The position numbers were made by a program, and so were the translations under genes. The notes below the pieces were generated by a model. The model made no database searches and had not been told where the DNA came from. It worked only from the letters and a program-made list of their open reading frames with translations. DNA of 27,184 nt from an uncultured Klebsiella sp. (GTDB lineage Bacteria; Pseudomonadota; Gammaproteobacteria; Pseudomonadales; UBA5518): NCBI GenBank assembly GCA_964465455.1, contig CAYXJM010000001.1, forward strand, positions 1 to 27,184, in the 5' to 3' direction. This document shows positions 2,694-26,511 of this stretch, piece by piece. Each line of letters begins with the position of its first letter. The first letter of the stretch is position 1.

Positions 2694-2708
2694 TTGAATA
2701 TTATTTAA
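2694..2708. promoter_or_regulatory. Operator-like palindrome TTGAATA-T-TATTTAA (1 mismatch to TTGAATA-N-TATTCAA)
   Basis: Lies in an AT-rich patch between the DUF3604 stop (2733) and the TBDR start (2536). The same motif occurs at 11846 and 26495. Confidence 0.7.
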
Positions 2709-2732
2709 TATTTCACTGGCGCAATGCGGTGC

Positions 2733-4628
2733 TCAGGGCACGTACCACACGGGCGACGAGTAGGCCCGCTCCTGGTGCACCAGCGGTACCCTGGCATCCA
2801 TCTCGACGCCGAAATAGGCGCGGTCGTATGCGGTCCAGCGCGGCGTGGGTATCTCGAGCACGCGCACGTACCAGAACGCCGGCGCGCTGGCGTCGAAATC
2901 GGGGTCCTGCCAGTACGCCAGCAGTTCCGGCGCACCGGACGTGTTGGTGTAGCTCGCGCTCGCCGCGTCCACCGTCGAGGCGACCGCCCGCTCCACGCGC
3001 CCGTCCGGCCCTATGCGGCGCCCATCGGATACGGCGATGTCATAGACGCGCTCGTGCAGCGCGCCGTCACGCGCGAGCCAGCCCTTGACGATCTGCACGC
3101 GATCGAGGTTGGCGCCGCGCGGATCCCGCGCGGCATGGACGAGGAACGCCGGCGCGCTGGCATCGCCCCGTCCGAGCACGCCGCCCATCGGCACGCCGCG
3201 CGCGTAGCCGACTCGCGCCAGGTTCGGGCGGTAGACGTCGGCCGGCGCGAACCCGCGCCCGGCGAAGAGCCGCAGGCGTATGCGCGTCCCCGTCGTGGCG
3301 TAGACTTCGCGCCGCTGGAACGCCTCGAAGATCGCCGCGCGCGTGTTCTCTCGCGCCCAGACGGCGGCGTAGCCGGAGGCGGCCATCTTCCACTCGGGGA
3401 TCTCGAACTCCGGTCGCCCCTGGTGGCGCAGCAGCGGCTGCGACCAGCGCGTCGGCGACGGCTCGGAACGGCTCATCTTGCCCCAGAAATTGTCCTCCTC
3501 GGCCGTCGCGAAGCCCGTGTGCGAGTCCGTGCTGCCGATCATGCCGAAGCGGAACGGATTGACGCCGAGGCGCGCCTGCTGCTGCAGCCCGAGCTTCAGC
3601 GCGGACCGTGCGTACTGGTAGGGCTGCATCGCGTCGGTCTGCATCACGCTGGAACCGAGGTTCGCGAGGTCCCAGGTCTCGTAGTCCGCGAACTCGTCCT
3701 CGGGCGACAGCAGCGGATGGGTCTCGGAGTCGCCCTTGTACTGCGTGACCTCGACCACCGGCTCCCAGCGCTGGCGCCGCTCGGCGTAGTCCCGGTCGAA
3801 GGGCCGCCCGGCGAAGTCCGCGGTGGCGAACATCCGCCCGCCGCTGGTGTTGCTGTTGTGCGGAATGGCGAGCGCCCGCCCGCCCGTTTTCGCCTCGTAG
3901 TCGGCCAGGTAGCGCCACAGCGCCTCGGGATCGGCGCTGTCGTTCGAGGAAAACGGCACCACCGCGCCCGCCTTGTCCGCCCCGTCGCCGAAGATCACGA
4001 CGCGGTGCAGGTTGTCGCCACCCGGCATCGAGCTCCACTCGTAGCCGATCAGCGCCGTGAACCGGCCCGGATCGTTGAAGCGCTCGGCGTTGGCGATTAC
4101 CTCCGCCCACACCGAGCGCTTGAAAGCCTCGCTGCCGATCGCGTCACCCTCGCCCTGCAGCACGTGCACGTAGTCCTCGATGAACTCGGGCGTGACCTCC
4201 CCGCCCTCGCCGAGGAACGAGGCCCAGCGCCTGCCGACCTCGGTGGCCAGCAGGTCCGGGTCCTTCGTGGCCAGCCGCGGGAACAGCCCGAGGTACTCGG
4301 AGTGGTCGGCGACCACGAGGAAATCGAGCGGCGTGCCGAGCTTCAGCGGCATCCCGTTCATGCCGCGCACCACCTCGCCGCGCGCGAAGCGGTAGGCCAC
4401 TTCGGGCGTCACGCGGCGGTTGCCGAGGCTCGCGGCGTCCGGGGACATGCTGGTGTGCAGGTGGGTGTCACCCCACAACAGCAACTCGGGAAAGTCGTCC
4501 GCGACGGCGGGCGAGTAGCTCGCGCGCTCCGCCGCGAGCGCGGCCCCTGCCAGGCACGCAGCGAGGGCCAGCGCCAGCCGCGACGCGGCGCCGGCGCGTG
4601 CGCGACGAATCGACGCGGAAAAAGCCAT
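2733..4628 (-). CDS. DUF3604 family secreted protein, PHP-like metallohydrolase fold (631 aa)
   Basis: N-terminal signal peptide (RLALALAACLAGAALA) and GGGAGGG RBS. Motifs LLWGDTHLHT, LDFLVVADHSE, IPHNSN, EVTQYKGDSETHP, FGMIGSTDSHTG, REVYATTG and C-terminal ERAYSSPVWY are typical of DUF3604. Confidence 0.85.
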   Translation of the reverse strand: MAFSASIRRARAGAASRLALALAACLAGAALAAERASYSPAVADDFPELLLWGDTHLHTSMSPDAASLGNRRVTPEVAYRFARGEVVRGMNGMPLKLGTPLDFLVVADHSEYLGLFPRLATKDPDLLATEVGRRWASFLGEGGEVTPEFIEDYVHVLQGEGDAIGSEAFKRSVWAEVIANAERFNDPGRFTALIGYEWSSMPGGDNLHRVVIFGDGADKAGAVVPFSSNDSADPEALWRYLADYEAKTGGRALAIPHNSNTSGGRMFATADFAGRPFDRDYAERRQRWEPVVEVTQYKGDSETHPLLSPEDEFADYETWDLANLGSSVMQTDAMQPYQYARSALKLGLQQQARLGVNPFRFGMIGSTDSHTGFATAEEDNFWGKMSRSEPSPTRWSQPLLRHQGRPEFEIPEWKMAASGYAAVWARENTRAAIFEAFQRREVYATTGTRIRLRLFAGRGFAPADVYRPNLARVGYARGVPMGGVLGRGDASAPAFLVHAARDPRGANLDRVQIVKGWLARDGALHERVYDIAVSDGRRIGPDGRVERAVASTVDAASASYTNTSGAPELLAYWQDPDFDASAPAFWYVRVLEIPTPRWTAYDRAYFGVEMDARVPLVHQERAYSSPVWYVP

Positions 4629-4664
4629 GGCTTTGCCCTCCCCGTGCGGCTGTCGCGCGCGGTG

Positions 4665-6023
4665 CTATTTCTCGCCCGCGAGATAACGCTCCAGCTCGGC
4701 GTGGAAATGCCGCAGCCGCTGCTCCTGCTCGCCCCAGAGCTGGTGGCGGAAAGCGCGCGAGCGCATGCCCTTCTGCACCACCGGCAGCAGCTCCGAATCC
4801 TGGCTCAGCACCAGCCCGAGGTTGCCGTCCTCGCCGATGCCGAAGTGCTCGCAGGCCGGACGCGTGCGACCGCTGGTGTCGGTGCCCTCGGGCAGTCCCA
4901 TCCAGTCGGGCACCTTGTAGTCCGGATGCTCGACCGGCGCGATCAGCGTCATCGTGTCGTAGTAGAAGCGCTCCGGATCGGTGGGATGCGGCAGGAAGCG
5001 CATCAGGAACACGCCCTCCGGATGACAGCCGATCTGCACGTTCGGGAAGATGCCGGTCGCCCAGCTGTCCGTCAGCTGCCCGTCCACGAAGCCCGAGTAA
5101 TCCAGCCCGAGTGCCGCCGCGCGCTGGCGCTTGGCCCGCTGGACCGCCGCCCGCACCTCGCGCGCCCCCCCCGCGAAGCCCTCCGGATCGATGCCGACAT
5201 CGGCCAGCATCGCACGCAGCCCGTCGTTCATGCTGTCCTGGTCGGCGATGCGCGGCGTCATCTGCCCGATCGGCACGATCATGCGGCTGGCCCCGTTCGG
5301 ATAGAGGTCGCACTGGACCTTGAGATCCGCCATCACCCATCGCGTCTCGGGATGCACCGCGTGCAGGTGATAGGTCTCGTAGAAGGCCTCGATGCCGACC
5401 TTCCAGTTCGCCGCCCACTCCGTGCGCACGTGCCGCACGACCTTCATGCGCTCGATGCGGTAGCCCTCGAGGTAGCCCTCGGGCAGGCCGATGTATTCCG
5501 AGAGCGGCGGCGGGTCCTCGCGCATCGAGACGAAAACCAGGCCCGCGTGCTCCTCGCAGGCCAGCGCGACCAGTCCCGGCTCGTGGCACACGACCTCCTC
5601 GCGGAAGGTCTCGCGATCGGTGATCGCGCTCAGCTTGCCCTGCAGGTCGAACTTCCACGAATGGAACGGGCAGATGAAGCGCATGCGGCTGCCCCGCTCG
5701 GCACGAACCAGGCGACTGCCGCGATGGCTGCAGACGTTGTAGTAGGCCCGCACCCCCGTCTCCGTGCGCACCACGATGATCGATTCGTCACCGATGTCGA
5801 ACAGGAAGTAGTCGCCGACCTGCGGGATGTCCGAGCTGACGCCCGCGATCAGCCACACGCGCGGCCACAACTGCTGCCACTCGCGCTGCATGAACTCGCG
5901 CGTGAAATAGCGCGACTTGTCGTAGCTGCCGGTCCCGTTGTCGATGTACGGCTGCTTGGCCTCGAGCGAACCGGCCGGTGCAGCCGGATTCACCACGATG
6001 CCCGTCTCGTAGTCGAACTTCAT
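4665..6023 (-). CDS. Rieske non-heme iron oxygenase alpha subunit (452 aa)
   Basis: Start at ATG 6023 (MKFDYETG) with GAGGAGG RBS. Rieske motif CSHRG...CPFHSW, mononuclear iron motif NWKVGIEAFYETYHLHAVH and C-terminal Asp in QDSELLPVVQKG. Confidence 0.92.
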   Translation of the reverse strand: MKFDYETGIVVNPAAPAGSLEAKQPYIDNGTGSYDKSRYFTREFMQREWQQLWPRVWLIAGVSSDIPQVGDYFLFDIGDESIIVVRTETGVRAYYNVCSHRGSRLVRAERGSRMRFICPFHSWKFDLQGKLSAITDRETFREEVVCHEPGLVALACEEHAGLVFVSMREDPPPLSEYIGLPEGYLEGYRIERMKVVRHVRTEWAANWKVGIEAFYETYHLHAVHPETRWVMADLKVQCDLYPNGASRMIVPIGQMTPRIADQDSMNDGLRAMLADVGIDPEGFAGGAREVRAAVQRAKRQRAAALGLDYSGFVDGQLTDSWATGIFPNVQIGCHPEGVFLMRFLPHPTDPERFYYDTMTLIAPVEHPDYKVPDWMGLPEGTDTSGRTRPACEHFGIGEDGNLGLVLSQDSELLPVVQKGMRSRAFRHQLWGEQEQRLRHFHAELERYLAGEK

Positions 6024-6070
6024 GAGATCCTCCTCGTGTTGCCGGTGCGATACGGCACTCGCCGCCCGCC

Positions 6071-6502
6071 TCAGTCGCGACGCAGCGAGGCCACGGCCGT
6101 TCCCGGCGCCAGCACCTCGTCGTTCTGGTTCAGAATCGCCACCTCGATGCTCACTTGCGCGCGCTCGCGATCGACTGCAAGTATCCTGCCGGTCGAGCGC
6201 AGCGTGTCGCCGATGAACGCCGCGCGCCGGTTCGAGTACTCGATCTCGACCAGACTGCCGTGCTCGCCCAGCCACTCGACCACGCACTGGTGCAGCCAGT
6301 CGCCGAGCAGCGGCCCGGCCATCACCAGGCCGGGATAGCCCTCGACGTCGCGCGCATACGGGTAGTCGAAATGGATCTTGTGCGCGTTCCACAGCGCAGC
6401 GTTGTAGAGGAACAGCTGGATCGTGTCGGGCCGGAATTCGCGCGTGGGCAGCGCCTGTCCCGCCGCCAGCGTGTCGATGTCCGGCCGGGCCATCTCGCTC
6501 AT
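6071..6502 (-). CDS. MaoC/hot-dog dehydratase, C-terminal-half type (143 aa; HTD2/mesaconyl-C4-CoA hydratase-like)
   Basis: The ATG at 6502 overlaps the upstream TGA (ATGA). Motif QLFLYNAALWNAHKIHFDYPYARDVEGYPGLVMAGPL resembles the N-x-H-x-I-H-[YF]-D...EGYPGLVVHGPL motif of the Meh/Ich/HTD2 hydratases. Confidence 0.8.
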   Translation of the reverse strand: MSEMARPDIDTLAAGQALPTREFRPDTIQLFLYNAALWNAHKIHFDYPYARDVEGYPGLVMAGPLLGDWLHQCVVEWLGEHGSLVEIEYSNRRAAFIGDTLRSTGRILAVDRERAQVSIEVAILNQNDEVLAPGTAVASLRRD

Positions 6503-6954
6503 CGCAGGATCCTCGTCGTCGTTTCGGTCACCACGGGCTCGCCGCGCTCGTTCTCGACCGTCATCACGATCTCGTAGAAGATCAGCGGTCCGGAGGATCC
6601 TTCCTTCTGCCAGATGTTCGTCAGCGTGCGGCTGGCGAGCAGCACGTCTCCGGGACGTATCGTGCGGTGATAGGCGATCTTCAACCCACCCGCCATCGCG
6701 CGCTTCAGGGGAAATTCGGGCAGCAGCGCGTCGATCGCCACGCCGTCGGGGCTCAGCTGCTCCGGTTCCGGCACGGGCCAGAACAGCGCGAGGTAGAACA
6801 TCGGCGGCGCCTCGTCGCCGTCGAGGTACTTGCGCAGCCGCTGCCCGGTGGCGATCGCGTACTTGCGGATGTCCTTGCGCGTCACCAGTTCGAGCTGCGG
6901 CGGCGCCTTGCGCCCGATGTTGGCCAGCAGTTCCGGCGTCAGCAGGCTGCCCAT
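6499..6954 (-). CDS. MaoC dehydratase N-terminal-half (FAS1-like dehydratase) protein (151 aa)
   Basis: ELVTRKDIRKYAIATG...EAPPMFY...LSPDG...LLPEFPLKRAMAGG...IRPGDVL...KEGSSGPLIF matches the pattern of the MaoC_dehydrat_N / N-terminal hot-dog half. Confidence 0.8.
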   Translation of the reverse strand: MGSLLTPELLANIGRKAPPQLELVTRKDIRKYAIATGQRLRKYLDGDEAPPMFYLALFWPVPEPEQLSPDGVAIDALLPEFPLKRAMAGGLKIAYHRTIRPGDVLLASRTLTNIWQKEGSSGPLIFYEIVMTVENERGEPVVTETTTRILR

Positions 6955-6957
6955 CGT

Positions 6958-8499
6958 TCACTCCCCTGCATACAGCTTGCGCAGTTCGCGCTTGAGAATC
7001 TTGCCGGTCGGCGCCTTGGGCAGGCTGTCGACGAACGCAACCGACTTCGGCTTCTGGTACGACGCGAGGTGCCGGCGCGCCTCGTCGATGATCTCGCGCT
7101 CGCTCGCGTGCATCCCCGGCTTCAGCACCACCACGGCCTTCACGACCTCGCCCCATTCGGCGTCGGGAATGCCGATCACCGCGCACTCCAGCACGGCGGG
7201 GTGGCGATGGATCGCGTTCTCGACCTGTGTCGAGTAGATGTTCTCGCCGCCGGAGATGATCATGTCCTTGGCGCGATCCACGATGTAGACGTAGCCCGAC
7301 TCGTCCCACGTCGCGATGTCGCCGGTCCACATCCAGCCGTCGCGGATCGTCTGGGCCGTGAGGTCGGGACGGCGCCAGTAGCCGAGCATGTTCGCGTCCG
7401 AGCGCACGATGATCTCGCCGGAGCTCTGCCCGTCCCGCGATACCGGCCGGCCACCCGGGTCGACCACGCGCACGCTGGTCACGAATCCCTCGCGACCGCA
7501 GCTGCGCAGCCGCTCGGGGCGGATGCCGCGCACGGCCTCGGCGTGATCCTCCTGCGACAGGAACGTCATGGTCATGCCCTCGGTCTGCCCGTAGCCCTGG
7601 ATCAGCGTGCAGGGAAACATCTCCAGCGCGGATTTCACCACCGAGACCGGCATAGGCCCGCCGCCATACTGGATGTTGCGCAGGCTGCGCAGGTCGAAGG
7701 ACCCGAAGTTTTCCACCGCCATCATCCAGTTCAGCATCGTGGTGATGCCGAGGAAGGCCGAGACTTGCTCCTCCTGGATCAATTCCAGCGCCTGGCGCGC
7801 CTCGAAGTTGACGAGCACCAGGGGACAGCCGTGGGCCATGTAGTTCATGGCCAGCGCGACCGGAATGTGGAACATCTGCCCGGTGAGCATGTACACGTCG
7901 GACGGCACGATGCGCTCGGCGACCGTCTGGTTCAGCATGCCCATGTAGATGCTGCGGTGCGAATGCAGCGCGCCCTTGGACTCCCCGGTGGTGCCGCCGG
8001 TGTACAGGATCAGCAGCGGATCGTCGCCGCCGACCGAGTCGCTGAGCGCCGGTTCCGCGTCGCTCGCCGCGCCGAGCAGGGCCTCGTAGCTGCCGTCGGA
8101 TGCGGCGCCGAACTCGAACCAGTGCGGCAGGTCCAGCTCGCGCTGCAGCGCCTCGCGCTCGGCACGGAAATCGGCCGAGGACAGCAGCGCCGCCGGCTCT
8201 CCCTCGCGCAGGATGCGGGCCATCTCCGGCACGGCGAGGCGCCAGTTCAGCGGTTGCGCCACCAGTCCCGCGCGGCCGCAGGCGTAGAACAGCTCCAGGT
8301 ACTCGATGCAGTTCTTCGCCAGGATGGCGATGCGCGCACCGCGACCGACACCGGGCAGCGCGCTGAGCCCGTTGGCCAGGCGCCGCACCCGCGCGTCGAG
8401 TTCGCCGAACCCGATGCGGCGCCCGTTGGGCACGTCGATGATCGCCGTGCGACCCGGTGCGAGCGCGGCGTGCTTGGCGGGTATCTGGCCGATGTTCAT
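6958..8499 (-). CDS. Acyl-CoA synthetase / AMP-binding ligase (513 aa)
   Basis: Adenylation motifs ILYTGGTTGESKGA, QGYGQTEG, WMWTGD, DRAKDMIISGGENIYSTQVE and LPKAPTGKILK. Confidence 0.95.
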   Translation of the reverse strand: MNIGQIPAKHAALAPGRTAIIDVPNGRRIGFGELDARVRRLANGLSALPGVGRGARIAILAKNCIEYLELFYACGRAGLVAQPLNWRLAVPEMARILREGEPAALLSSADFRAEREALQRELDLPHWFEFGAASDGSYEALLGAASDAEPALSDSVGGDDPLLILYTGGTTGESKGALHSHRSIYMGMLNQTVAERIVPSDVYMLTGQMFHIPVALAMNYMAHGCPLVLVNFEARQALELIQEEQVSAFLGITTMLNWMMAVENFGSFDLRSLRNIQYGGGPMPVSVVKSALEMFPCTLIQGYGQTEGMTMTFLSQEDHAEAVRGIRPERLRSCGREGFVTSVRVVDPGGRPVSRDGQSSGEIIVRSDANMLGYWRRPDLTAQTIRDGWMWTGDIATWDESGYVYIVDRAKDMIISGGENIYSTQVENAIHRHPAVLECAVIGIPDAEWGEVVKAVVVLKPGMHASEREIIDEARRHLASYQKPKSVAFVDSLPKAPTGKILKRELRKLYAGE

Positions 8500-8512
8500 G
8501 TGGCTTCAGGCC

Positions 8513-8926
8513 TCAGTAAGGCAGGTCCAGCTCGATGCGGCGCGTCGCGAGCACCCAGCGACCGTCCCTGCGCACGACGCGATCGCGGTACAGCGCCGTG
8601 GAGATCAGCCGTATCGCGCCGTTCTCGGTCCCGAACAGCGTCAGGTTCGACACCACCTCTGCCTCGGCCTCGCCGCCCGATGCGAAGAAGATATTGGAGA
8701 CCACGTGCCGGCGCTTGTCCGTCTGCGCGGCGATGGAGTTGCGCATCAGCCCCATGATCGCGTCGTGGCCGAGGAACGGCGCGATCGGCGGCTGGCCGGC
8801 AATCTGCATGTGGAACTCCGCGTCGGCGGCGAAGCAGGCTCCCAGCATGTCGAGGTCCTGCTCGTCGAGCGCGTACGCGGCGCGGGAAAGCAGTTCGTGT
8901 ATCTCGAGCTTGGCGGCGGTGTCCAT
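8513..8926 (-). CDS. NTF2-like / SnoaL_4 family protein (137 aa)
   Basis: Pattern LEIHELLSRAAYALD...CFAADAEF...RRHVVSN...YRDRVVRRDGRWVLATRRI; GGGAG RBS. Confidence 0.85.
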   Translation of the reverse strand: MDTAAKLEIHELLSRAAYALDEQDLDMLGACFAADAEFHMQIAGQPPIAPFLGHDAIMGLMRNSIAAQTDKRRHVVSNIFFASGGEAEAEVVSNLTLFGTENGAIRLISTALYRDRVVRRDGRWVLATRRIELDLPY

Positions 8927-8947
8927 GTTCCCTGTCTCCCGTGAAGG

Positions 8948-10849
8948 TCATTCGATCGCGAACGCGAGCAAGACATTGCCCGGCATGTGCCCGTAGATGC
9001 CGTAACCGGACATCACGTACATCATGCCGTCCTTGAACACCGGGGCGGCGCCGCCGCCGAGCGAGCCGCCTCTCGCCGGCACCCCGCCGAGCGCCTGGAA
9101 CTCGCGCGCCGTGTCGAAGGACCAGATCACCTCGCCGCTCGCGCTGTCGTGCGCCCGCAGCCACCCGTCCATCGAGCCCGCGAACACCGCGCCAGGAATC
9201 GAGGCGATCGCGCCCGATATGCCCGGGCTGCAGAACTCGCGTCCCGCGCACACATCCGGCGCGGGCTGGCTCCAGCGCAGCTGGCCGCTGCCGGCGTCGA
9301 GCGCGTACAGGCCGGGCTTCGCTTCGCCGGGCCAGCGCGGCCCGCCGAAATAGTCCGAGATCGGCACGAAGACCGTGTCGCCCTCGGCACTCATGCCGAA
9401 GTGCACGCCGCCCTGGATTCCGCCGCGCCCCAGCTTGCGCTGCCACAGCACTGCCCCCGTGTCGGGATCGAGCGCGTGCACCTCCCCGGATTTCTGCCCG
9501 GCCACGAGGATGTCCTTGCCGGCCGATGTCGTCACCAGCATCGGCGCCGCACCGAAATCGAAGTCCGGGCCGTCCTCCGGCGGACAGTTGGTGCGATCGA
9601 CCGCCTCGCAGCCCATGTTCCAGGCGTCGCCCGCCGTTGCCTGCCACGCCCATGCCGTGGAGCCGCTGTCGATATCGAACGCTATGATCGCGTCGCTGCG
9701 TTCGTTCGCCGGCGAGGAATAGTTCTCGCCGGTGCCGACATAGAGTCGGCGGCGCTTGGCATCGACCACCGGGGTGCCCCACACCGGCGCCCCGGAGGGC
9801 GCGATGCGCGGGGTGCCGTGCGCGTTCACGTCGACCTGTGCCGGCGTCTCCGCGATGGTGTGAGCGGTCCACAGCCGCTTGCCCGTGGCTGCGTCGTAGG
9901 CAGCAACGCCGCCACGGAAGGTGCAGCACGCGTACGCGGGATCGGCCGCCGCGGTCACTTCGAGGGAGGACAGCGCCACGTAGAGCCGGTCCTCGAAGCG
10001 CACCGGGGACGCGGTGATCGTGAGGCTGTGGTGATCGTCGGGACGATCACGCCAGCGCAACTCGCCGCTCTGCGCGTCCAGCGCGTAGACGTTGCCCGTC
10101 AGGTCGCCGAAATACACCCCCGGTCGCGCGCCGGCGTCACCTGCCGTCCAGCCGTCGAGCAGGATGCCGGTGCGCACCTCGGCGGCGGCCTTGAAGGTCC
10201 AGCGCACGCAGCCGCTGCGCGCATCGAGCGCGTAAACCGTGCCGTCATGGCTGCCCATGAACAGCGCGCCGCCGCCGGTCACCGGCTGCGAGCGCGCGCG
10301 GATCGCGTCCGGAAACGCGAAGCTCCACTTCAGTGCGAGCTTCGGCACCTCGGCGCGCGCGAAGCCCGCCACCTGCTGCGGGTAGAAATGGCTGTTGCCG
10401 CGATCGACGCCCCAGCCGAGCGCATCGGGCGGCGCGGCGAAGTCGAACTTGCTGCTGCCGGCGGCGCAGCGCATCTCCGCGGCCAGCGCCACCGGTTCCG
10501 CGAAGGGGCGACCCGTGACGTATTCGGCGACCGCGCGCCGCTCCTCCGGCGAGAGCTTCGCGCCCTGCTCCTGCATCGCGCCGGACTCCAGCGCCGCGAC
10601 CACCCGGTGTGGCGCCATCAGGCCGATGATGGTGCGGTGCGGGGCACGCGTCACCTGGCCCTCGTGGCATTGCATGCAGTGCAGCGCGTAGACGCCCTGC
10701 CCGGCCACCGCCGGCGCGGAGGGTGCGGGCGCATCGGAGACCGCCGTGCTCGCCGGCTCCGGCACCGGGGCCTCGTCCCGTCCGCAGCCGGCCAGCAACA
10801 CGGGCAGCGCCAGCGCTGCCACCATCGAACGCAGGGAGAGCGCCATCAT
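8948..10849 (-). CDS. PQQ-dependent dehydrogenase with N-terminal cytochrome c, lipoprotein (polyvinyl-alcohol dehydrogenase-like quinohemoprotein, 633 aa)
   Basis: Lipobox LLAG-C and heme motif CMQCH. Multiple PQQ beta-propeller repeats (GTVYALDARSGCVRW, GNVYALDAQSGELRW, GEVHALDPDTGAVLW) plus PVA-DH-family-like CCTFRG, GAPVWGTP, DAWNMGC, DFDFGA and GGVHFG motifs. Confidence 0.85.
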   Translation of the reverse strand: MMALSLRSMVAALALPVLLAGCGRDEAPVPEPASTAVSDAPAPSAPAVAGQGVYALHCMQCHEGQVTRAPHRTIIGLMAPHRVVAALESGAMQEQGAKLSPEERRAVAEYVTGRPFAEPVALAAEMRCAAGSSKFDFAAPPDALGWGVDRGNSHFYPQQVAGFARAEVPKLALKWSFAFPDAIRARSQPVTGGGALFMGSHDGTVYALDARSGCVRWTFKAAAEVRTGILLDGWTAGDAGARPGVYFGDLTGNVYALDAQSGELRWRDRPDDHHSLTITASPVRFEDRLYVALSSLEVTAAADPAYACCTFRGGVAAYDAATGKRLWTAHTIAETPAQVDVNAHGTPRIAPSGAPVWGTPVVDAKRRRLYVGTGENYSSPANERSDAIIAFDIDSGSTAWAWQATAGDAWNMGCEAVDRTNCPPEDGPDFDFGAAPMLVTTSAGKDILVAGQKSGEVHALDPDTGAVLWQRKLGRGGIQGGVHFGMSAEGDTVFVPISDYFGGPRWPGEAKPGLYALDAGSGQLRWSQPAPDVCAGREFCSPGISGAIASIPGAVFAGSMDGWLRAHDSASGEVIWSFDTAREFQALGGVPARGGSLGGGAAPVFKDGMMYVMSGYGIYGHMPGNVLLAFAIE

Positions 10850-17074: not shown

Positions 17075-17123
17075 GGCCGCGGACGCGACATTCACGCAAC
17101 GACACACCGCAAGGAGCCGCAGC

Positions 17124-18863: not shown

Positions 18864-18867
18864 GCCT

Positions 18868-19260
18868 ATGCACGCTATCCGGCGCCTCCTCCTGGCGGGT
18901 CTGGTCCCGGCGCTTTGCGCGCCCGGCCTGCATGCCGCGGACACGAGTTTCAGCCAGCAGGTGCTGCCGCTGCTGAACAGCCACTGCGTCATCTGTCACA
19001 TGCCGGGCGCCGCGCAGGCGGAGCTCAGCCTCTACCCCGATGCCTGGGCGGCGCTGGTGAACCAGCCCTCCACCCAGAGCGCGTTGCCGCGCGTCAAGCC
19101 CGGTGATCCCGACGGCAGCTATCTCTACCGCAAGCTCGCCGGCACCCATCTCGACGCCGGCGGCAGCGGCGAACCCATGCCGTTCCAGCGCGAGCAGCTG
19201 GCGCCGGCCGACCTCGCGCTGGTCCGCGACTGGATCGCGGCGGGCGCGCCGAACAACTGA
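18868..19260 (+). CDS. Small periplasmic monoheme cytochrome c (Planctomycete cytochrome C-like, 130 aa)
   Basis: ATG 4 nt after the flavoprotein stop. Signal peptide, SFSQQVLPLLNSHCVICH heme motif, VKPGDPDGSYLYRKL, candidate axial Met in EPMP, and LVRDWIAAGA. Confidence 0.8.
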   Translation: MHAIRRLLLAGLVPALCAPGLHAADTSFSQQVLPLLNSHCVICHMPGAAQAELSLYPDAWAALVNQPSTQSALPRVKPGDPDGSYLYRKLAGTHLDAGGSGEPMPFQREQLAPADLALVRDWIAAGAPNN

Positions 19261-19274
19261 AGAGGAGATCCCCG

Positions 19275-19754
19275 ATGAGCAACACCGACGACCTGGTCCG
19301 CTCGCTGCTGGCGCGCGTGGACGAACTCGAGAGCCGCAGCGCGATCCGCGACCTCGTGAGCGATTACTGCCTCGGCTTCGACAACCACGACTGGGAGCGC
19401 TTCGTCGCGATCTGGCACGAGGATGCGGTGTGGGAGATCGGGCCTCCCTTCGGCACTTTCCACGGGCACGCGGGCATCCGCAAGGCCGTCTTCGAGATCC
19501 TCTACCCGTTCTGGCGCGAATCGCATCACCTGTCGACGAACCTGCGCATCGCGTTCAGCGACGCGGACCACGCGCACAGCGTCTGCAACGTCGACTGCAT
19601 GGGCGCCTCGGTAGAGGACGTCGTGCAGATGGTCGGCGCCACCTACACCGACGATCTCGAGCGCCGTGACGGGGTGTGGAAGATCGCGAAGCGCACGGTC
19701 ACGATCCACTACTTCAACCCCATGCCCGGCCTCGTCATGAGCGCACCGGGCTGA
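19275..19754 (+). CDS. NTF2-like lyase, LinA/BaiE-like dehydratase or dehydrochlorinase homolog (159 aa)
   Basis: GAGGAG RBS. SRSAIRDLVSDY...D36...IWHEDAVW...GT..G..G...LYP...ESHH85.TNLR...TD..ERRDGVWKIAKR140...YFNPMPG aligns by eye with LinA along its length. Confidence 0.85.
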   Translation: MSNTDDLVRSLLARVDELESRSAIRDLVSDYCLGFDNHDWERFVAIWHEDAVWEIGPPFGTFHGHAGIRKAVFEILYPFWRESHHLSTNLRIAFSDADHAHSVCNVDCMGASVEDVVQMVGATYTDDLERRDGVWKIAKRTVTIHYFNPMPGLVMSAPG

Positions 19755-19766
19755 GGGCCGCGGGAC

Positions 19767-20756
19767 ATGGACGCGCGCACGGACTGGCTCGCCCGCGGCG
19801 CCGAGGCCGCTCTCGATCCGGAATTGCCCATCTGCGATCCGCACCATCACCTGTGGATCTATCCGGACAACCGCTACCTGCTCGCGGAGTTCCTCGCCGA
19901 CGCCGGCGGCGGCCACCGCATCGAGCGCACGGTGCACGTCGAGTGTGCCATGTTCTACCGCGACGGAGGCGCCGAGGAGCTGCGCCCGGTCGGCGAGACC
20001 GAGCGCGTGCACCAGCTCACCGAGGCGACGCAGGCGACGTCGACGCGCGTCGCTGCCGGCATCGTGGGACTCGCGGACCTGCGCCTCGGCGCTGCCGTCG
20101 CACCGGTGCTCGCGGCGCACCGCGCGGCAAGTCCGCGCTTTCGCGGCGTGCGTTTCGGCACCGCGCGCGACGACAGCGCGCAGTTGCACCCCTCTCACAC
20201 CAGGCCGGCGGCGCTGCTGATGCAGCAGGCAGACTTCCGCGCCGGCCTGCGCTGCGTGGCCGAGGCGCGCCTCGTCTTCGACGCGTGGATGTATTTCAGC
20301 CAGCTGCCCGAGCTGCACGAGATGGCGCGTGCACTGCCGGAGCTGCGCATCGTGCTCGACCATGCCGGGGGGCCGGTCGGCATCGGTGCCTACGCGGGAC
20401 GCCGGCAGGAAGTCTTCGCCGCCTGGCACGCGCACATGCGCTCACTCGCGGAGTTGCCGAACGTGATGGTGAAACTGGGCGGGCTCACGATGACCATGGC
20501 CGGCTTCGGCTGGCACAAGCTGCCCGAGCCACCGTCCTCGACGACCCTCGCCGAGGCCATGCGCCCCTACTTCCTTGCCTGCATCGAGCTGTTCGGCGTG
20601 CAGCGCTGCATGTTCGAGAGCAACTTTCCGATGGACCGCGTGTCCTGCTCCTACACCGTGCTGTGGAACGCCTTCAAGCGCGTCACGGAGGGCTTCAGCG
20701 ACGACGAGCGGCGCGCCCTGTTCCACGACAACGCGGTGCGCGCCTACGCGCTGTGA
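19767..20756 (+). CDS. Amidohydrolase family 2 protein, possible lactonase (329 aa)
   Basis: ICDPHHHLW metal-site motif, FRGVR, VFDAW, IVLDHAGGP, NVMVKLGG and RCMFESNFPMD. Confidence 0.88.
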   Translation: MDARTDWLARGAEAALDPELPICDPHHHLWIYPDNRYLLAEFLADAGGGHRIERTVHVECAMFYRDGGAEELRPVGETERVHQLTEATQATSTRVAAGIVGLADLRLGAAVAPVLAAHRAASPRFRGVRFGTARDDSAQLHPSHTRPAALLMQQADFRAGLRCVAEARLVFDAWMYFSQLPELHEMARALPELRIVLDHAGGPVGIGAYAGRRQEVFAAWHAHMRSLAELPNVMVKLGGLTMTMAGFGWHKLPEPPSSTTLAEAMRPYFLACIELFGVQRCMFESNFPMDRVSCSYTVLWNAFKRVTEGFSDDERRALFHDNAVRAYAL

Positions 20757-20771: not shown

Positions 20772-21566
20772 TCAGCGGCCCATGAACGCCTGCAGCGCCG
20801 CCGCGTGCTGCTCGCTGGTGTGGCACAGGCTCTGCTGGCTGGCGCAGTAGTCGAGGAAATCGCCGAGCTCGAGGCGCTGCCCGGCCCACAGCAACCGCTT
20901 GGCGATGCGCAGCGCCTCGCGCGGCTTGCCGGCGAACTGCGCCGCCAGCTCGTGCGCCCGCGCGAGCAGGCCCTCCGGCTCCACCGTTTCCATGAACAGC
21001 CCGAGCGCCAGCGCCTCCGCGGCCGACACGATGCGGCCGGAGAACATCAGCTCGGCGGCGCGCTGGATTCCGATCAGCCGCGGCAGGAACCACGCGCCGC
21101 CGTCGCCGGGAATGATGCCGAGGTTCACGAAGGTCGAGCCGACTTTCGCCTGCGTCGAGCCGATACGGATGTCGCACATGCAGCACAGGTCCAGGCCGGC
21201 GCCGATCGCCGGTCCGTTCACGGCCGCTATGGCGGGCACCTCGAGGCGGTACATCGCGAGCGTCATCCGCTGGATGCCGCGCCGGTAGCCGTCCTGCACC
21301 TCGATCGGCGTGCCACCGAACATGCCGCGGCGCTCGCGCATCTCGGCGACGTTGCCGCCGGAGGAAAAGGCCTTGCCTGCCCCCGTCAGCACCAGCGCTC
21401 CGACCGCGTGGTTGCGGTTGATCCAGTCGCAGGTGTTCACGATGTCCGCTATCAGGTGCGTGCCCGTGAGCGCGTTGCGCAGGTCGTCGCGCGCGAGCAC
21501 GAGGGTCGCGACCCCGGCGTCGTCGAGCGAGAGTCGCGCATCCCCGAGTTCCGGCATCGCAATCAT
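20772..21566 (-). CDS. Crotonase / enoyl-CoA hydratase-isomerase superfamily protein (264 aa)
   Basis: Start ATG 21566 after GAGGGGG. Oxyanion-hole motifs FSSGGNV and AAVNGPAIGAGLD, then LGIIPGDGGAWFLPRLIG. Confidence 0.9.
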   Translation of the reverse strand: MIAMPELGDARLSLDDAGVATLVLARDDLRNALTGTHLIADIVNTCDWINRNHAVGALVLTGAGKAFSSGGNVAEMRERRGMFGGTPIEVQDGYRRGIQRMTLAMYRLEVPAIAAVNGPAIGAGLDLCCMCDIRIGSTQAKVGSTFVNLGIIPGDGGAWFLPRLIGIQRAAELMFSGRIVSAAEALALGLFMETVEPEGLLARAHELAAQFAGKPREALRIAKRLLWAGQRLELGDFLDYCASQQSLCHTSEQHAAALQAFMGR

Positions 21567-21580
21567 CGCTGTTTCCCCCC

Positions 21581-22609
21581 TCAGCCGGTTATCCTGGGCC
21601 ACAACGCCCCCGCGCCGGCGCGCGCCACCTCGCGCCCGAGCCGGCCCGCCCAGTAGCGGTCGTTGCCGAATTCCGAGCGCCACGCCCACAAGCGCTGCGT
21701 GAAGTGGTGCAGGGCATGCTCGCGCGTGAAGCCGATGGCACCGTGCAACTGGTGCGCGATCGACGTCGCCTGGTGCACCGCACGGTTGGCGCGCAGCTTC
21801 GCGCAGGCAATCGCGAGTTCCGTATCGCCCGCGGTGTCCAGCGAGAGGCAGGCCGCACCCGCGGCGCAGGACACCGCCGCCGTCTCCTCGGCCAGCAGCG
21901 CCAGCTGGTGCTGGATGACCTGGAACTTCGCCAGCGCGCGGCCGAACTGCACGCGATCGTTCGCGTGCGCGGTCGTCAGCGCGAGCGCGCCGGCCAGCGC
22001 GCCGCCCGCCTGCGTGGCCCGCAGCAGCGCGCCGCGCATCAGCAGCGTGTCGCAGGCGTTTTCGCGGCGGCACGACGCGACCAGCGCCGACCCGTCGAGC
22101 TCGAGGTCGGCGCGGGCTTCCGCGCCCACGCCATCACGGCGCCGGCAGTGTCGCGCGGCGCTGCTGTCGTAAAGCGCGAGGTACTCGGCGCCTTCGTGCG
22201 CGAACGCGGTGAGCACGCAGGCCTCGCCGCTGCCCCACGGGACGTTGCGCAGTTCGACGCGCAGCCCCGAGCCCTGCGCCTGCACCGCGCTGCAGCCGGC
22301 CAGGGTGATCGGCGCCTCGGGCACCGCGATGCCCGTGTCCTGCAGCAGCTGTCGCGCCAGCATCGTCTCGGCCACCGGCAGCGCGAGGGCGTGTTCTCCG
22401 GCGGCGTGCATCAGGATGCGCGCGTCCTGCCAGCTCCCCCCGAAGCCGCCCGCCCCCTCGGGCAGCAGCAGGTCGCACAGCGCGAGCTCGCGGACCCGCT
22501 CCCAGCCGGCGCCGAAATCGGGGCGTGCCCCGTGGCCCCGCTCGTGCGCCGCCAGGTCGGGAAACAGTCGCTCGATCGTGTCGGTCAGCATCCGCTGCTG
22601 TTCGTTCAT
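21581..22609 (-). CDS. Acyl-CoA dehydrogenase, short non-catalytic-type subunit (342 aa)
   Basis: DRVQFGRALAKFQVIQH and AHQLHGAIGFTREH; shortened N-terminal/middle region; ATGA overlap with the upstream ACAD. Confidence 0.88.
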   Translation of the reverse strand: MNEQQRMLTDTIERLFPDLAAHERGHGARPDFGAGWERVRELALCDLLLPEGAGGFGGSWQDARILMHAAGEHALALPVAETMLARQLLQDTGIAVPEAPITLAGCSAVQAQGSGLRVELRNVPWGSGEACVLTAFAHEGAEYLALYDSSAARHCRRRDGVGAEARADLELDGSALVASCRRENACDTLLMRGALLRATQAGGALAGALALTTAHANDRVQFGRALAKFQVIQHQLALLAEETAAVSCAAGAACLSLDTAGDTELAIACAKLRANRAVHQATSIAHQLHGAIGFTREHALHHFTQRLWAWRSEFGNDRYWAGRLGREVARAGAGALWPRITG

Positions 22610-23754
22610 CGCAGTCCGAGCCCCTTGGCAATGATGCCGCGCAGGATTTCACGCGTGCCGCCGCGCAGCGAGAAGGAAGGCGACGCGCGCAGCAGGTAGT
22701 CGAGCGCGTCCTGCAGCGCCCCGTCTCCGGCGGCCGCGAGCTCCGGATCGATCGCGGCCTGCACCAGCGGCGGGATGTCCTGTTCGAAGCGCGCGCCGAG
22801 GTCCTTCACGATCGCCGCCTCCAGCGCGGGCAGCGCGCCCCGCGCCAGCTGCCCGGTCACCGAGAGCGACATCTGGCGCAGCGTCCAGAGCTCCGCCGTC
22901 AGCGTGCCGATCAGCGCGGCGATCTCGGGCTCGGGTGCGGGGCCGACCGCCGCGACGAGCTCCTCGAGCAGGCGATAGCTGCTCAGGTAACGCTCCGGCC
23001 CGCTGCGCTCGAGCGCGAGCTCGGCGTTGACCTGTGCCCAGCCCTCGCCTTCGGTGCCGAGCAGCATTTCCTCCGGCACGAAGACATCGTTGAAGAACAC
23101 CTCGCCGAAATGCGCGGCACCGGTGTGATCGACCACGGGGCGCACGGTGACGCCCGGGCTCGCCAGTTCGACGATGAACTGGCTGAGCCCCGCGTGCCGG
23201 CTGTCCTCCTCGCGGCTCGTGCGCACGAGGGCGATCATCAGCTGCGCCCTGTCCGCGTTCGTGGTCCAGAGCTTCGAGCCGTTGATCTTCCATCCGCCCT
23301 CGACGCGCGTCGCGCGCGTGCGGATCGACGCGAGGTCGGAACCGGAGTTGGGCTCGCTCATGCCGATGCAGCAGAACAACTCGCCGCGCGTCATCGCGGG
23401 CAGGTAGCGCCGGCGCACCTCCTCGCGGGCGTAGCGCAGCAACAGCGCCCCGCTCTGGCGGTCGGCGATCCAGTGCGCCGCCACCGGGGCGCCCGCCGCC
23501 AGCAGTTCCTCGAGCAGCACGTAGCGCTCCAGCACGCCGCGCTCCTGGCCGCCGTATTCGCGCGGCCACGTCATCCCGATCCAGCCCCGTTCACCGAGCT
23601 TCCGGCTGAACTCCGCATCGAACCCGGTCCACGTCTGCGCCTTCTGCCGCGCGCCCAGTCCCGCCAGTTCCTCGCGCAGGAAGGCGCGGACCTCCTGCCG
23701 CAGGGCCGCCGTTTCGGGCGGCAGTTCGAGCGCTTCGAAATTGATGATGTTCAC
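22606..23754 (-). CDS. Acyl-CoA dehydrogenase, catalytic-type subunit (382 aa)
   Basis: GWIGMTWPREYGG, CIGMSEPNSGSDLAS, INGSKLWTT, FGEVFFNDVFVP, candidate catalytic Glu in LALERS, and C-terminal SLRGGTREIL. Confidence 0.92.
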   Translation of the reverse strand: MNIINFEALELPPETAALRQEVRAFLREELAGLGARQKAQTWTGFDAEFSRKLGERGWIGMTWPREYGGQERGVLERYVLLEELLAAGAPVAAHWIADRQSGALLLRYAREEVRRRYLPAMTRGELFCCIGMSEPNSGSDLASIRTRATRVEGGWKINGSKLWTTNADRAQLMIALVRTSREEDSRHAGLSQFIVELASPGVTVRPVVDHTGAAHFGEVFFNDVFVPEEMLLGTEGEGWAQVNAELALERSGPERYLSSYRLLEELVAAVGPAPEPEIAALIGTLTAELWTLRQMSLSVTGQLARGALPALEAAIVKDLGARFEQDIPPLVQAAIDPELAAAGDGALQDALDYLLRASPSFSLRGGTREILRGIIAKGLGLR

Positions 23755-23762
23755 GGTGGTCC

Positions 23763-24974
23763 TCAGCGGTCCAGGTCGTGGCGGCCGATGATCGCCACGC
23801 TGCAGACATTACGGTTGGGGAATCCTCCCAGATTGTGCGTGAGCCCCAGCCGCGGCGCGGGAAGCTGGCGCTCGCCGGCGCGCCCGTGGATCTGCAGGTA
23901 GATCTCGTAGACCATGCGCAGGCCCGAGGCCCCGAGCGGGTGTCCGAAGCACTTCAGCCCGCCGTCGACGTTGCAGGGCACTTTCCCGCCGCGGTCGAAC
24001 TTGCCGTCGAGCACGTCCCGCCAGCCGTGGCCGACCTCCGAGAGGCCGAGATCCTCCATCGTGATCAGTTCCGTGATCGAGAAGCAGTCGTGCACCTCGA
24101 CGAGGTCCAGTTCCTCGACGGGGTCCGCGATGCCGGCCTCGCGGTAGGCGCGTCCGGAGGCCAGTCGCGCGGTCACCGCGTGGCTGCCGTCCCAGGTGTC
24201 GTGGAACATTTCCGCGCCGTTGCTCAGCGCGAGCTGCATCGCCTTGACCGTGACCAGGTCCTCACCCTTGCCGAGGCGGCGGGCGATCTCGGGGGTGGTA
24301 ACGATCGCGCAGGCCGCTCCGTCGCTCACGCCGCAGCAGTCGAAGAGCCCGAGCGGCCAGGCTATCATCGGCGCCTTCAGCATCTTCTCCTTCGGCACGC
24401 GGCTGCGCAGGTGCGCCTTCGGGTTGAGCGCGCCGTTCTCGTGGCTCTTCCACGACACGTGCGCCATCGCGTCCTTCAGGGTCTCGAGCGGCACACCGTG
24501 GTTGTGCGCGTAGGCGATGCACATCTGCGCAAAGGAGCCCGGCGCGGTCACGCCCGGCAGCCACAGGTCCTCGAAGGTGCCCATCGGGCGCGGCGGCAGG
24601 CCGCCGAAGCCGGTGTCCTTCAGCTTCTCCACGCCCATCGCGAGCGCGATGTCGCAGGCACCGGCGGCCACCGCGTAGACCGCGCCGCGCAGCGCCTCGG
24701 ATCCGGTCGCGCACAGGTTCTCCACCCGCGTCACCGGCACGTTGGCGAGCCGCAGGGTCTGCGACAGCGAGAGCGCCGATTTGCTGAGGCTGTGCTCGTC
24801 GTAGCACAGCCCGAGCCACGCCGCCTCGATCTGCGGCGTCTCGATGCCGGCATCGGCGAGGCACTCGGTATAGGCCTCGAGGATCAGGTCGTCCGCGCCG
24901 CAGTCCCAGCGTTCGCCGAAGCGGCTGCAGCCCATGCCGATGATCGCCACCTTGTCCTTGATGCCCGTTGCCAT
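23763..24974 (-). CDS. SCP2/SCP-x-type thiolase (403 aa)
   Basis: ENLC88ATG nucleophile loop, EVHDCF (SCP2-type), GGLKCFGHPLGASG and CCGVSDGAAC. Confidence 0.9.
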   Translation of the reverse strand: MATGIKDKVAIIGMGCSRFGERWDCGADDLILEAYTECLADAGIETPQIEAAWLGLCYDEHSLSKSALSLSQTLRLANVPVTRVENLCATGSEALRGAVYAVAAGACDIALAMGVEKLKDTGFGGLPPRPMGTFEDLWLPGVTAPGSFAQMCIAYAHNHGVPLETLKDAMAHVSWKSHENGALNPKAHLRSRVPKEKMLKAPMIAWPLGLFDCCGVSDGAACAIVTTPEIARRLGKGEDLVTVKAMQLALSNGAEMFHDTWDGSHAVTARLASGRAYREAGIADPVEELDLVEVHDCFSITELITMEDLGLSEVGHGWRDVLDGKFDRGGKVPCNVDGGLKCFGHPLGASGLRMVYEIYLQIHGRAGERQLPAPRLGLTHNLGGFPNRNVCSVAIIGRHDLDR

Positions 24975-25001
24975 GCTGCTGTCCTTCTCTCGCGAAACGC
25001 C

Positions 25002-26453
25002 TCAGGCCACACCCGGAACCGGCGCCGCCTTCCAGAAATAGCGGTGGAACCCGCGCAGGCTGTCGAAGTCCTTGATGCGGAACTCCATGCGCACCGGCGT
25101 CCCGATCGCGATTTCACCCGGGGCGAAGCCCGTGAACTCCATCATCAGAACCGCCTTGTCGGCGAAGCGCACGTTGCCGTACATCAGCGGCGGATTGCGC
25201 GACAGCGCGAGCCAGTCCTCGGTGAAGGACTTCACCTCGCCGATCTTCTCCCGCAGCGGCTCGGCGACCTGCGTGGCGGCGCGGTTGCAGGCGGGATTGA
25301 CGCAGTAGCGGGTCTTCGGGAACTGCAGCGTGTCGCAGGCCGTGCAGCGCCCGCCGACGAAGGCGGTGATCGCCTCGCGCGCGCGGAAGTGCGCCGATTG
25401 CGCCGTGCGCGTGTCGCGCTCCTCGCGCATGCCGAGATCCAGGTCGAGCAGGCGGTTGAAGGCCAGGTAGCGCAGGTAGTTGTCGTCCGCCCGGCCCTGC
25501 TGCAGCGCCGCCCCGACGCCGTGGAAGTCGCGCACTTCGGCGATGCGCCCGGTCGTCTCGAACAGCAGCGCGTCGCAGCCCTGCCCGAACCCGAGCAGCA
25601 GGATCCGCTCCCCCGGCGCCGCCGCCTCCAGCGCGGCGCAGAGCATCAGCAGCGGGTAGGCGCAGCCGCTGTAGCCGCACTTCTCGATCAGACCCGGCTG
25701 CACCGCGCTCTCGGCTATGCCGCAGGCCTTCGCCACCGCCCTGGCCGCGCCGTCCTGCAGGCCGCCGAGCACGAAGCGGTCGATCTGCGCGGGCGCGACA
25801 CCGGTCTTGCCGAGCAAGCCCGCCACGGCCCGGGGCACGATCTTCAGATAGCCCTCCTCGCGGACCCAGCGCTCCTCGAGCACGTAGTCGTAACGGGCCT
25901 GCGCTCCGCGGTAGTGATCGACCAGATCGCAGGCCACCGAGTGCGAACCGACGAAGCGCGCGAGGACGTCCTCGCTGCCGAGCAGCAGCGCCGCCGCGCC
26001 GTCGCCTGCCAGCATTTCCATCGTGCTGCCGGGCTTGGAGAGCGGCCGGTCGGCGCCGAGCACCAGCGCGGGGCCTTCGCTGCGCAGGCCGTGGATCAGC
26101 GCGCCGGTCGCGGCGCGCTGCGAACCGCCAGTGTCCACGGCGTGCAGGTCGCCCCCGAGTCCGAGCGCTTCGGCGACGACGCCGGCGTTCTGGCGGTCGA
26201 GGAAAGGCAGCGTGGTCGAGGCGAGCAGCAGTTCGCCGACGGCCCTGCGCGGCGGCAGGTGACGCAGCGCGGCCCGCGCCGCCGCGACCGCCATCGTGAT
26301 GCTGTCCTCGTCGAAACTGCCGTAGGCGCGCGCTCCCTTCGCCATGGCCGCGAGATTGGGAAAGGCCCACGCGTGGGCCTGTGCGATCGCCGTGCGTGCC
26401 AGCCGCAGCCGCGGCAGGTACGCCCCGAACGCCGAAATGCCGGTTTCCGCCAC
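25002..26453 (-). CDS. HMG-CoA-synthase/KAS-III-like fold fused to C-terminal DUF35 (Zn-ribbon + OB fold); catalytic Cys absent (483 aa)
   Basis: GTG start with GAAGGAG RBS. N-terminal GISAFGAYLPRLRL...DEDSITMAV, GDGAAALLLG and GFGQG. C-terminal GGRCTAC...CVNPAC Zn ribbon and OB-fold G.VKSFT...PVRMEFR. Confidence 0.85.
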   Translation of the reverse strand: MAETGISAFGAYLPRLRLARTAIAQAHAWAFPNLAAMAKGARAYGSFDEDSITMAVAAARAALRHLPPRRAVGELLLASTTLPFLDRQNAGVVAEALGLGGDLHAVDTGGSQRAATGALIHGLRSEGPALVLGADRPLSKPGSTMEMLAGDGAAALLLGSEDVLARFVGSHSVACDLVDHYRGAQARYDYVLEERWVREEGYLKIVPRAVAGLLGKTGVAPAQIDRFVLGGLQDGAARAVAKACGIAESAVQPGLIEKCGYSGCAYPLLMLCAALEAAAPGERILLLGFGQGCDALLFETTGRIAEVRDFHGVGAALQQGRADDNYLRYLAFNRLLDLDLGMREERDTRTAQSAHFRAREAITAFVGGRCTACDTLQFPKTRYCVNPACNRAATQVAEPLREKIGEVKSFTEDWLALSRNPPLMYGNVRFADKAVLMMEFTGFAPGEIAIGTPVRMEFRIKDFDSLRGFHRYFWKAAPVPGVA

Positions 26454-26492
26454 CTGAACACTCCTTCCCGCAGCAGCGCTGCCGCGACACTC

Positions 26493-26511
26493 ATTTGAAT
26501 ACTATTCAAAT
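26493..26511. promoter_or_regulatory. Perfect 19-bp palindrome ATTTGAATA-C-TATTCAAAT (operator)
   Basis: Perfect inverted repeat in the divergent intergenic region between the HMGS-DUF35 gene and the SnoaL gene. Confidence 0.8.

Follow-up and report, generated by a model that had tools for sequence, protein, structure and literature searches.

A TTGAATA-N-TATTCAA palindrome as the putative operator of a local TetR-family repressor in a catabolic gene cluster of an uncultured gammaproteobacterium

The palindrome TTGAATA-N-TATTCAA recurs in the spacers of a catabolic gene cluster carried on a 27,184-base stretch of DNA from an uncultured gammaproteobacterium. This stretch, hereafter the window, comprises bases 1-27,184 of the 39,047-base contig C1, the remainder of which was also analysed, and it comes from a metagenome-assembled genome (MAG) of 3.47 Mb in 735 contigs, with 70% GC, 91% completeness and 84 runs of N. 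Judging from the sequence, we consider it highly probable that this 15-bp element, with TTGAA-N5-TTCAA as its core, serves as operator for an autoregulated repressor of the TetR family (222 aa), encoded locally by a gene that straddles the right edge of the window.

In the window, the pattern TTGAATANTATTCAA is matched four times at up to three mismatches, always within non-coding spacers (4/4), whereas 100 dinucleotide-preserving shuffles contain no match; the places and mismatch counts are exactly those given in the original prediction. The genes around these sites were mapped by codon-position GC analysis and Pfam scans. The leftmost site, O1 (TTGAATATTATTTAA, 2694-2708, one mismatch), lies in a 70-nt spacer, 32 nt 5' of the ATG at 2662 of TonB-dependent receptor 1 (2662-101, minus strand). 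This receptor gene comes after the DUF3604 gene that ends the SDR1-to-DUF3604 operon, also on the minus strand, which begins with an ATG at 11745 and runs down to 2733. By Pfam, the order in this operon is SDR1, a lipoprotein-type pyrroloquinoline quinone (PQQ)/cytochrome c dehydrogenase, a SnoaL-like protein, an acyl-CoA ligase, a MaoC-like protein, a Rieske oxygenase and DUF3604; a literature search on DUF3604 gave nothing relevant. With their tight packing on one strand behind O2 and with O1 ahead of the receptor, the minus-strand genes of 101-11745 form the first set predicted to be under control. O2 itself (11846-11860, perfect) sits in the divergent spacer between the SDR1 operon and the plus-strand SDR2-MaoC unit (12059-13855, ATG at 12059). 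The predicted plus-strand targets (12059-16358) comprise SDR2 and the MaoC-type hydratase behind O2, and TonB-dependent receptor 2 (14028-16358, ATG at 14028) behind O3 (TTTAATTAGATTCAA, 13896-13910, three mismatches), a candidate weak operator 118 nt 5' of the receptor ATG.

A terminator-like hairpin with a 13-bp stem and T7 (16409-16437, plus strand) lies 3' of receptor 2. Beyond it, the fifth unit of the window (16490-20756, plus strand) is operator-free and consists of a SnoaL_4 gene (16490-17074, 194 aa, missed in the first pass over open reading frames), a gene for a KstD-like flavoprotein (17124-18863) with a twin-arginine-like signal, SRRRILKG, at its start, more genes and an amidohydrolase gene. 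The last site, O4 (26493-26511), has a perfect 15-bp core (26495-26509) within a 19-bp palindrome, an extension that had been proposed before and is a true palindrome. It lies 42 nt 5' of the start at 26453 of a minus-strand operon (20772-26453), likewise a predicted target, that encodes an HMGS-like/DUF35 fusion, an SCP-x-type thiolase, two acyl-CoA dehydrogenase subunits (alpha/beta) and an enoyl-CoA hydratase, and 133 nt from a plus-strand SnoaL-like gene (26642-27049). Several genes of the cluster resemble those for steroid side-chain breakdown (KstD-like, the acyl-CoA dehydrogenase alpha/beta pair, SCP-x thiolase with DUF35, and MaoC hydratases), and the contig carries three acyl-CoA ligases together with a beta-oxidation-like enzyme set; no core steroid ring-cleavage genes are seen on it. 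An attempt to name the substrate from solved structures was dropped, and no substrate is named here, because the matches are all generic: carnitine, phthalate and biphenyl oxygenases for the Rieske oxygenase, and FadD13 and feruloyl-CoA ligases for the ligase.

At the scale of the whole 3.47-Mb assembly, sites with up to two mismatches number only six, against 0.12 expected from base composition, and all six lie on contig C1, half of them inside the window and the other half further along, at contig positions 28056, 36062 and 36146. By comparison, 37 control palindromes with shuffled half-sites give a mean of 0.27 matches and a maximum of 2. The same six sites rank first in a genome-wide scan with a symmetrised position-weight matrix (PWM; 31.7-42.4 bits, with O1 at rank 4 and 34.5 bits), and they are followed by O3 at rank 7 (26.3 bits), such that the top seven are all on contig C1; rank 8 is on another contig (25.0 bits), and the remainder score at most 18.6 bits. 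The genome-wide scan that the original prediction had proposed as a check thus finds the motif confined to the cluster rather than spread over unrelated promoters. All AT-rich non-coding islands of the contig hold a site, with the exception of a ribosome-binding region and a terminator tail. The idea that the sites stem from a mobile element or repeat was rejected because their flanks have nothing in common beyond the dyad. A literature search with the motif string and TetR returned no relevant match.

The only transcription-factor gene on the contig belongs to the TetR family, and it lies where a regulator had been anticipated, beyond the right edge of the window. This gene (contig C1:27060-27883, minus strand, ATG at 27883) has its last 40 codons and stop inside the window (27060-27182, minus strand) and crosses an assembly gap of 100 N at contig 27185-27284. 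An identical 55-nt sequence flanks the gap on each side, so the two pieces overlap and the gap splits an intact gene artificially; when the overlap is collapsed, an intact protein of 222 aa results, and the ortholog in the closest genome, G007, is equally long. The TetR gene is divergent from a thiolase-like gene, and site 28056 lies between the two.

The encoded protein belongs to the TetR family, having a helix-turn-helix (HTH) domain, an all-helical two-domain fold and a palindrome in its own promoter region. Pfam detects TetR_N (PF00440; E=5.6e-10, 39.3 bits against a cut-off of 24), and TetR_C_6 scores slightly below its cut-off (25.8 against 27 bits). The HTH matches many solved TetR proteins. 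An AlphaFold2 model, built from eight orthologs and lacking the last 23 residues, has eight helices and no strands, with a predicted local distance difference test score (pLDDT) of 69.7 and a predicted template-modelling score (pTM) of 0.62. In a Foldseek search of the PDB, the best 50 matches listed are all TetR-family proteins, with template-modelling scores of about 0.55-0.65, and include the acyl-CoA-binding regulators FadR and DesT. None of the curated NCBIfam models reaches its cut-off, the best being BetI at 39 bits against 201.

Within the genus, the palindrome and the TetR gene occur together. Our sample comprises 16 genomes, namely this assembly (G000) and 15 others, three of which encode a TetR ortholog (78-85% identity). 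The four genomes with the gene contain 6, 4, 7 and 6 sites with up to two mismatches, mostly clustered around it, while the 12 genomes in which no ortholog was found contain none (nine genomes) or 1, 1 and 3 scattered sites. In G007, 6/7 sites fall in a 39-kb region that surrounds the TetR gene and whose gene cluster is syntenic with contig C1, and 5/6 sites of G011 surround the gene. Sites outside the clusters (G004:C63, G004:C394, G007:C11 and G011:C9) were taken as chance or unrelated matches because no orthologs of cluster genes lie nearby.

When orthologous spacers are aligned, 93/105 operator columns (89%) are identical compared to 513/1150 other columns (45%), a difference for which the Fisher P value of 2e-19 is descriptive only because the genomes are related. 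O2 retains 14/15 columns in G007, where its flanks have diverged, and O4 is kept in both G007 and G011. By position, the counterpart of O3 in G007 is a degenerate palindrome, TTTAATTATATTAAA. Many of the G007 orthologs (C24:307330-345274, L088-L090) align in fragments, such as the ligase over 289/513 aa and the thiolase over 317/403 aa; these look like frameshift-type assembly errors, and losses of sites or genes in G007 therefore call for caution. The relatives also carry an extra operator, TTGAATTACATTCAA (L090:16823-16837, which is G007:C24:356823; G011:C2:366420; G004:C385:2035), about 15 nt 5' of a second PQQ/cytochrome c dehydrogenase gene (718 aa), which is transcribed away from a thymidine-phosphorylase-like gene. 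For neither TTGAATTACATTCAA nor the second dehydrogenase was a counterpart found in this assembly.

The association extends to distant lineages. Beside TetR orthologs of 49-67% identity, TTGAA-N5-TTCAA occurs in eight more loci (L011, L012, G052 and L103-L107), ranging from 43 to 71% GC, in spacers of the same gene families, and the conservation in orthologous upstream regions that had been suggested as a check is thereby seen both within the genus and far outside it. In a Pseudomonadales MAG (L012) and in G052, the site separates the TetR gene from a SnoaL-ligase-MaoC-thiolase operon, and an alphaproteobacterium, a Kordiimonas MAG (L011), carries it by its TetR ortholog. The other five loci (L103-L107) are metagenomic contigs, one of which (L107) has two perfect copies, while another (L106) has a pair of sites in the spacer between the PNPOx and enoyl-CoA hydratase genes, as on our contig. 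A more remote TetR relative (42% identity) in a deltaproteobacterial MAG (L015) is accompanied by four TTGAG-N5-CTCAA sites in 20 kb, where we estimate from base composition that about 0.01 would be expected. This variant retains the 15-bp geometry with a symmetric base change, and the HTH of the L015 protein differs at several positions.

This TetR subfamily is patchy among reference genomes and has many members in metagenomes. No ortholog at E<=1e-40 was found in the 400 species representatives sampled across the class, while metagenomes contain 1,128 clusters at E<=1e-20, under generic names only, of which the best 120 are all at least 58% identical. The gene content of these loci offers some side observations. 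A PNPOx-like split-barrel flavoprotein, 97% identical between congeners, is a constant member of the cluster and heads an acyl-CoA ligase operon, and in one metagenomic contig with a 64%-identical TetR protein (L103:9694-12088), F420 biosynthesis genes (CofC, CofD and F420 ligase) adjoin the conserved cluster; together these hint at an F420- or FMN-dependent reduction step in the pathway. In two lineages (L104:8047-10301 and one more locus), a Rieske oxygenase gene and three tandem glutathione S-transferase genes come after the TetR gene, which suggests that the subfamily also controls pathway variants with glutathione S-transferase-dependent steps.

With this distribution in hand, we consider whether the palindrome might be bound by another factor encoded elsewhere, such as a second regulator of the pathway or one that governs TonB-dependent uptake globally, with the TetR protein using a different site. 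Global control is frequent for TonB-receptor genes, and the fragmented assembly may lack further regulators of the cluster. Moreover, a related TTGAA-N5-TTCAA element, the rank-8 PWM site (TTGAAATATCTTCAA, C9:17358-17372, L102:7358), lies in the spacer where nuoA and a DUF3450-ExbB (TonB-system) operon diverge, and an orthologous TTGAAGAGTTTTCAA is present in G011 and also in G013, in which no TetR ortholog was found. The last observation is why we regard this element as probably unrelated to the regulon, although it may represent a link between the regulon and the TonB energising system. Against a separate factor, clustered sites are confined to genomes with the TetR ortholog, and a global regulator would predict sites on many contigs, which are not seen. 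Furthermore, the spacer upstream of the TetR gene itself holds a site, in the genus as well as in several distant lineages, and the operator variant changes along with the most divergent TetR protein (L015). We therefore judge a separate factor to be unlikely, and the TetR protein is the far better candidate for binding the palindrome.

How such binding would act is suggested by the position of the sites relative to predicted promoters, which here are sigma-70 consensus matches only. The predicted sigma-70-type promoter of the SDR1 operon (11832-11860, minus strand; TTGAAT-17-CATAAT) has 9/12 matches and a 17-nt spacer, compared to 0.1 such matches expected in shuffles, and the right half-site of O2 is its -35 hexamer. 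Beside O2 lies a second perfect palindrome, TTGCAT-T-ATGCAA (11828-11840), which is kept in G007 and has no other perfect copy in the genome. Two fully overlapping promoters draw on it, the plus-strand one for its -35 and the minus-strand one for its -10 (CATAAT); we read it as these promoter elements and rejected it as a second shared operator. A minus-strand promoter (TTGACA-18-CAAAAT, 26539-26510) has O4 directly 3' of its -10, and the overlap with promoter boxes or start site that the original prediction described at 11846 and 26493 is therefore present at both. Beyond the window, the left half of site 28056 is the -35 of a plus-strand TTGAAT-17-TATAGT promoter, and the left half-site at 36146 is likewise the -35 of a plus-strand promoter. 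At 36062, where the promoter scan flagged nothing, manual reading of the sequence shows a conserved TTGACA followed by a weak -10-like hexamer, with the site immediately 3' of the latter. A half-site thus serves as the -35 at three sites, and two others are placed directly 3' of the -10, an arrangement that fits a repressor excluding RNA polymerase. As RNA hairpins, the palindromes are weak (0 to -4.1 kcal/mol), so a role at the DNA level is the better reading, and a role as RNA hairpins was rejected on energy.

The same positions could also suit a TetR protein that binds the palindrome and activates, or acts dually, at some promoters where the site is upstream of or at the -35, or at O1. TetR repressors are typically divergent from and self-targeted beside catabolic genes, and the layout here is of this kind, which argues for repression. 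Where the operator stands in place of the -35, competition with sigma-70 region 4 is to be expected, not its recruitment, and the sites in the start region (O4 and 36062) have the classic placement for a repressor. On the other side, three sites are at the -35 and not at the -10/+1, the promoters compared are consensus matches throughout, and TetR-family activators exist, such as those of the LuxR/HapR type (PMC2628434). Activation at some promoters is, in our estimation, very unlikely. Most improbable of all is that the motif is a symmetric promoter architecture shared for the use of RNA polymerase alone or an alternative sigma factor: although TTGAAT fits TTGACA at 4/6 positions, is the predicted -35 in three places, and any AT-rich promoter island is conspicuous at 70% GC, the full dyad is conserved including its non-promoter half, its placement varies from -35 to +1, it is missing from all other promoters of the genome, it is kept in relatives of 43-58% GC where AT-richness is ordinary, and it tracks one TetR gene.

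The sites are real, exclusive to the cluster and conserved; they co-occur with the TetR gene and overlap predicted promoters. That the TetR protein binds them, and that the sign of regulation is repressive, we infer from this arrangement, and on the same basis the protein appears to control most of the 39-kb catabolic cluster. We propose that a TetR dimer would occupy seven sites on the contig, namely the four in the window and those at 28056, 36062 and 36146, and would exclude RNA polymerase by covering the -35 at three sites and the start region at two. Its own gene would thereby be shut off, along with about nine transcription units whose products are two TonB-dependent receptors, periplasmic dehydrogenases, three acyl-CoA ligases and beta-oxidation-like enzymes. 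The cluster would break down a fatty or steroid-like lipophilic compound, a metabolite of which would release the TetR protein from DNA. By analogy with TetR regulators of CoA-dependent catabolism, the inducer is most likely an acyl-CoA thioester, a proposal based on the three acyl-CoA ligases, the beta-oxidation-like genes and the acyl-CoA-binding TetR proteins among the fold matches.

Several observations weigh against this reading of the palindrome. The half-site resembles a -35 hexamer, and conservation of promoters could explain part of the signal; genomes of the same genus are also non-independent, which means that the footprint statistic is overstated. The confidence of the TetR structure model, with its pLDDT of 69.7, is moderate. 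At O1, a simple consensus scan finds no sigma-70-like promoter, and the corresponding G007 spacer holds TTGAAT half-sites only and no full site. O3 has a T at position 3, where the strong sites all have a conserved G, and it is not significant by count alone because its three-mismatch class is at chance level genome-wide (2 observed and 2.4 expected); its PWM rank and its degenerate counterpart in G007 nevertheless suggest a low-affinity site, which we estimate to be somewhat more likely functional than not. Finally, no site is found in the unit at 16490-20756, which starts behind the terminator-like hairpin. The original prediction linked all transcription units into one regulon, and this wording is too strong because that unit lacks a site, with 13896 being weak and 2694 having no full equivalent in G007; its core stands in that the motif is shared and confined to the cluster. 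The four palindrome-bearing spacers were also described as the main promoter-bearing intergenic regions, and for the window this holds, apart from this site-free fifth unit.

The mechanism of regulation is of the textbook kind, and our understanding of TetR regulation is unchanged by it; the regulator subfamily and the operator are undescribed. More tentatively, the TetR subfamily and TTGAA-N5-TTCAA might be the signature of a catabolic regulon that is widespread among uncultured Proteobacteria and so far undescribed, directed at an environmental lipophilic substrate by a pathway not yet described, a wider reading that we consider possible and somewhat less than even in its chances. Its core would then comprise a PNPOx-like protein with an acyl-CoA ligase; enoyl-CoA hydratase, acyl-CoA dehydrogenase and SDR; SnoaL, ligase and MaoC; and SCP-x thiolase with DUF35, PQQ/cytochrome c dehydrogenase and a TonB-dependent receptor. 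If true, a short DNA word would define the membership of a roughly 30-gene uptake-and-breakdown system and of related systems in metagenomes, where the operator would be a tag delimiting the whole pathway and the repressor a biosensor for its inducer. The pathway would thus gain a handle in the form of regulon boundaries, a candidate ligand sensor and substrate-responsive promoters. The pair of regulator and operator, with its co-varying variant TTGAG-N5-CTCAA, adds to the few TetR proteins with DNA specificity that is readable from sequence.

Among known systems, KstR and KstR2 are TetR repressors of actinobacterial steroid catabolism that are released by CoA thioesters, and they resemble our system in that many operons of a lipid or steroid CoA-dependent pathway are joined by a short palindrome. 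The KstR consensus is TnnAACnnGTTnnA, and its sole match in the window (507-520) is within the receptor coding region. The promoter regions of the window contain no TnnAACnnGTTnnA, and we do not assign the cluster to a KstR/KstR2 regulon, which agrees with the earlier view that the palindrome is not the KstR operator. KstR2 structures match our protein at E of about 1e-3 and over the HTH only, and the host here is a proteobacterium.

By NCBIfam and, for the C-domain, by Pfam, our protein most resembles BetI (TIGR03384 and TetR_C_6), and the divergent, autoregulated layout is shared. On reading the E. coli betI-betT spacer directly, we observe TTGATTGGACGTTCAA, a 16-bp TTGA-N8-TCAA dyad, which we take to be the BetI site. 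The outer TTGA...TCAA is common to both elements, whereas the dyad is 16 bp and even-spaced there and 15 bp and odd-centred here. Identity with BetI was rejected: our protein scores 39 bits against 201.3 with TIGR03384 and 37 bits against 118 with NF001978, is 23% identical to E. coli BetI, and has no bet or amine genes on its contig. A RegPrecise-type survey (PMC5343134) names FadP, PsrA, LiuQ and RutR, without a motif for comparison.

The FadR regulators are acyl-CoA-responsive TetR repressors. In Bacillus, two dimers of FadR (YsiA), which acyl-CoA releases, bind the operator GATGAATGAATACTCATTCAT, a pseudo-palindrome of 21 bp with TGAAT...ATTCA-like half-sites (PMC5397183), and this FadR, for which a B. 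halodurans structure with DNA is known, is among the fold matches; the element here is instead a single 15-bp dyad. The NCBIfam FadR model NF053878 gives 21 bits against a cut-off of 200, which does not indicate FadR orthology. In Thermus thermophilus HB8, the experimentally defined FadR operator TTRNACYNRGTNYAA is a 15-bp odd-centred palindrome consistent with one homodimer (PMC5597230). Its inner half-site is GGAC/RNAC rather than the GAAT observed here, its consensus has no match in the window at up to one mismatch, and sequence similarity is at the family level only (PDB 3ang, E=3e-3). The genes in our cluster also differ from a plain fad regulon in that they include TonB receptors, PQQ and Rieske enzymes and steroid-side-chain-like enzymes. 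Despite these differences, Thermus FadR, whose structures are among the fold matches of our TetR model, is a TetR-family acyl-CoA-responsive repressor of multi-operon CoA-dependent catabolic genes, and it is the closest of the known systems in operator geometry, with the same 7-N-7 arrangement and outer TT(G)...(C)AA.

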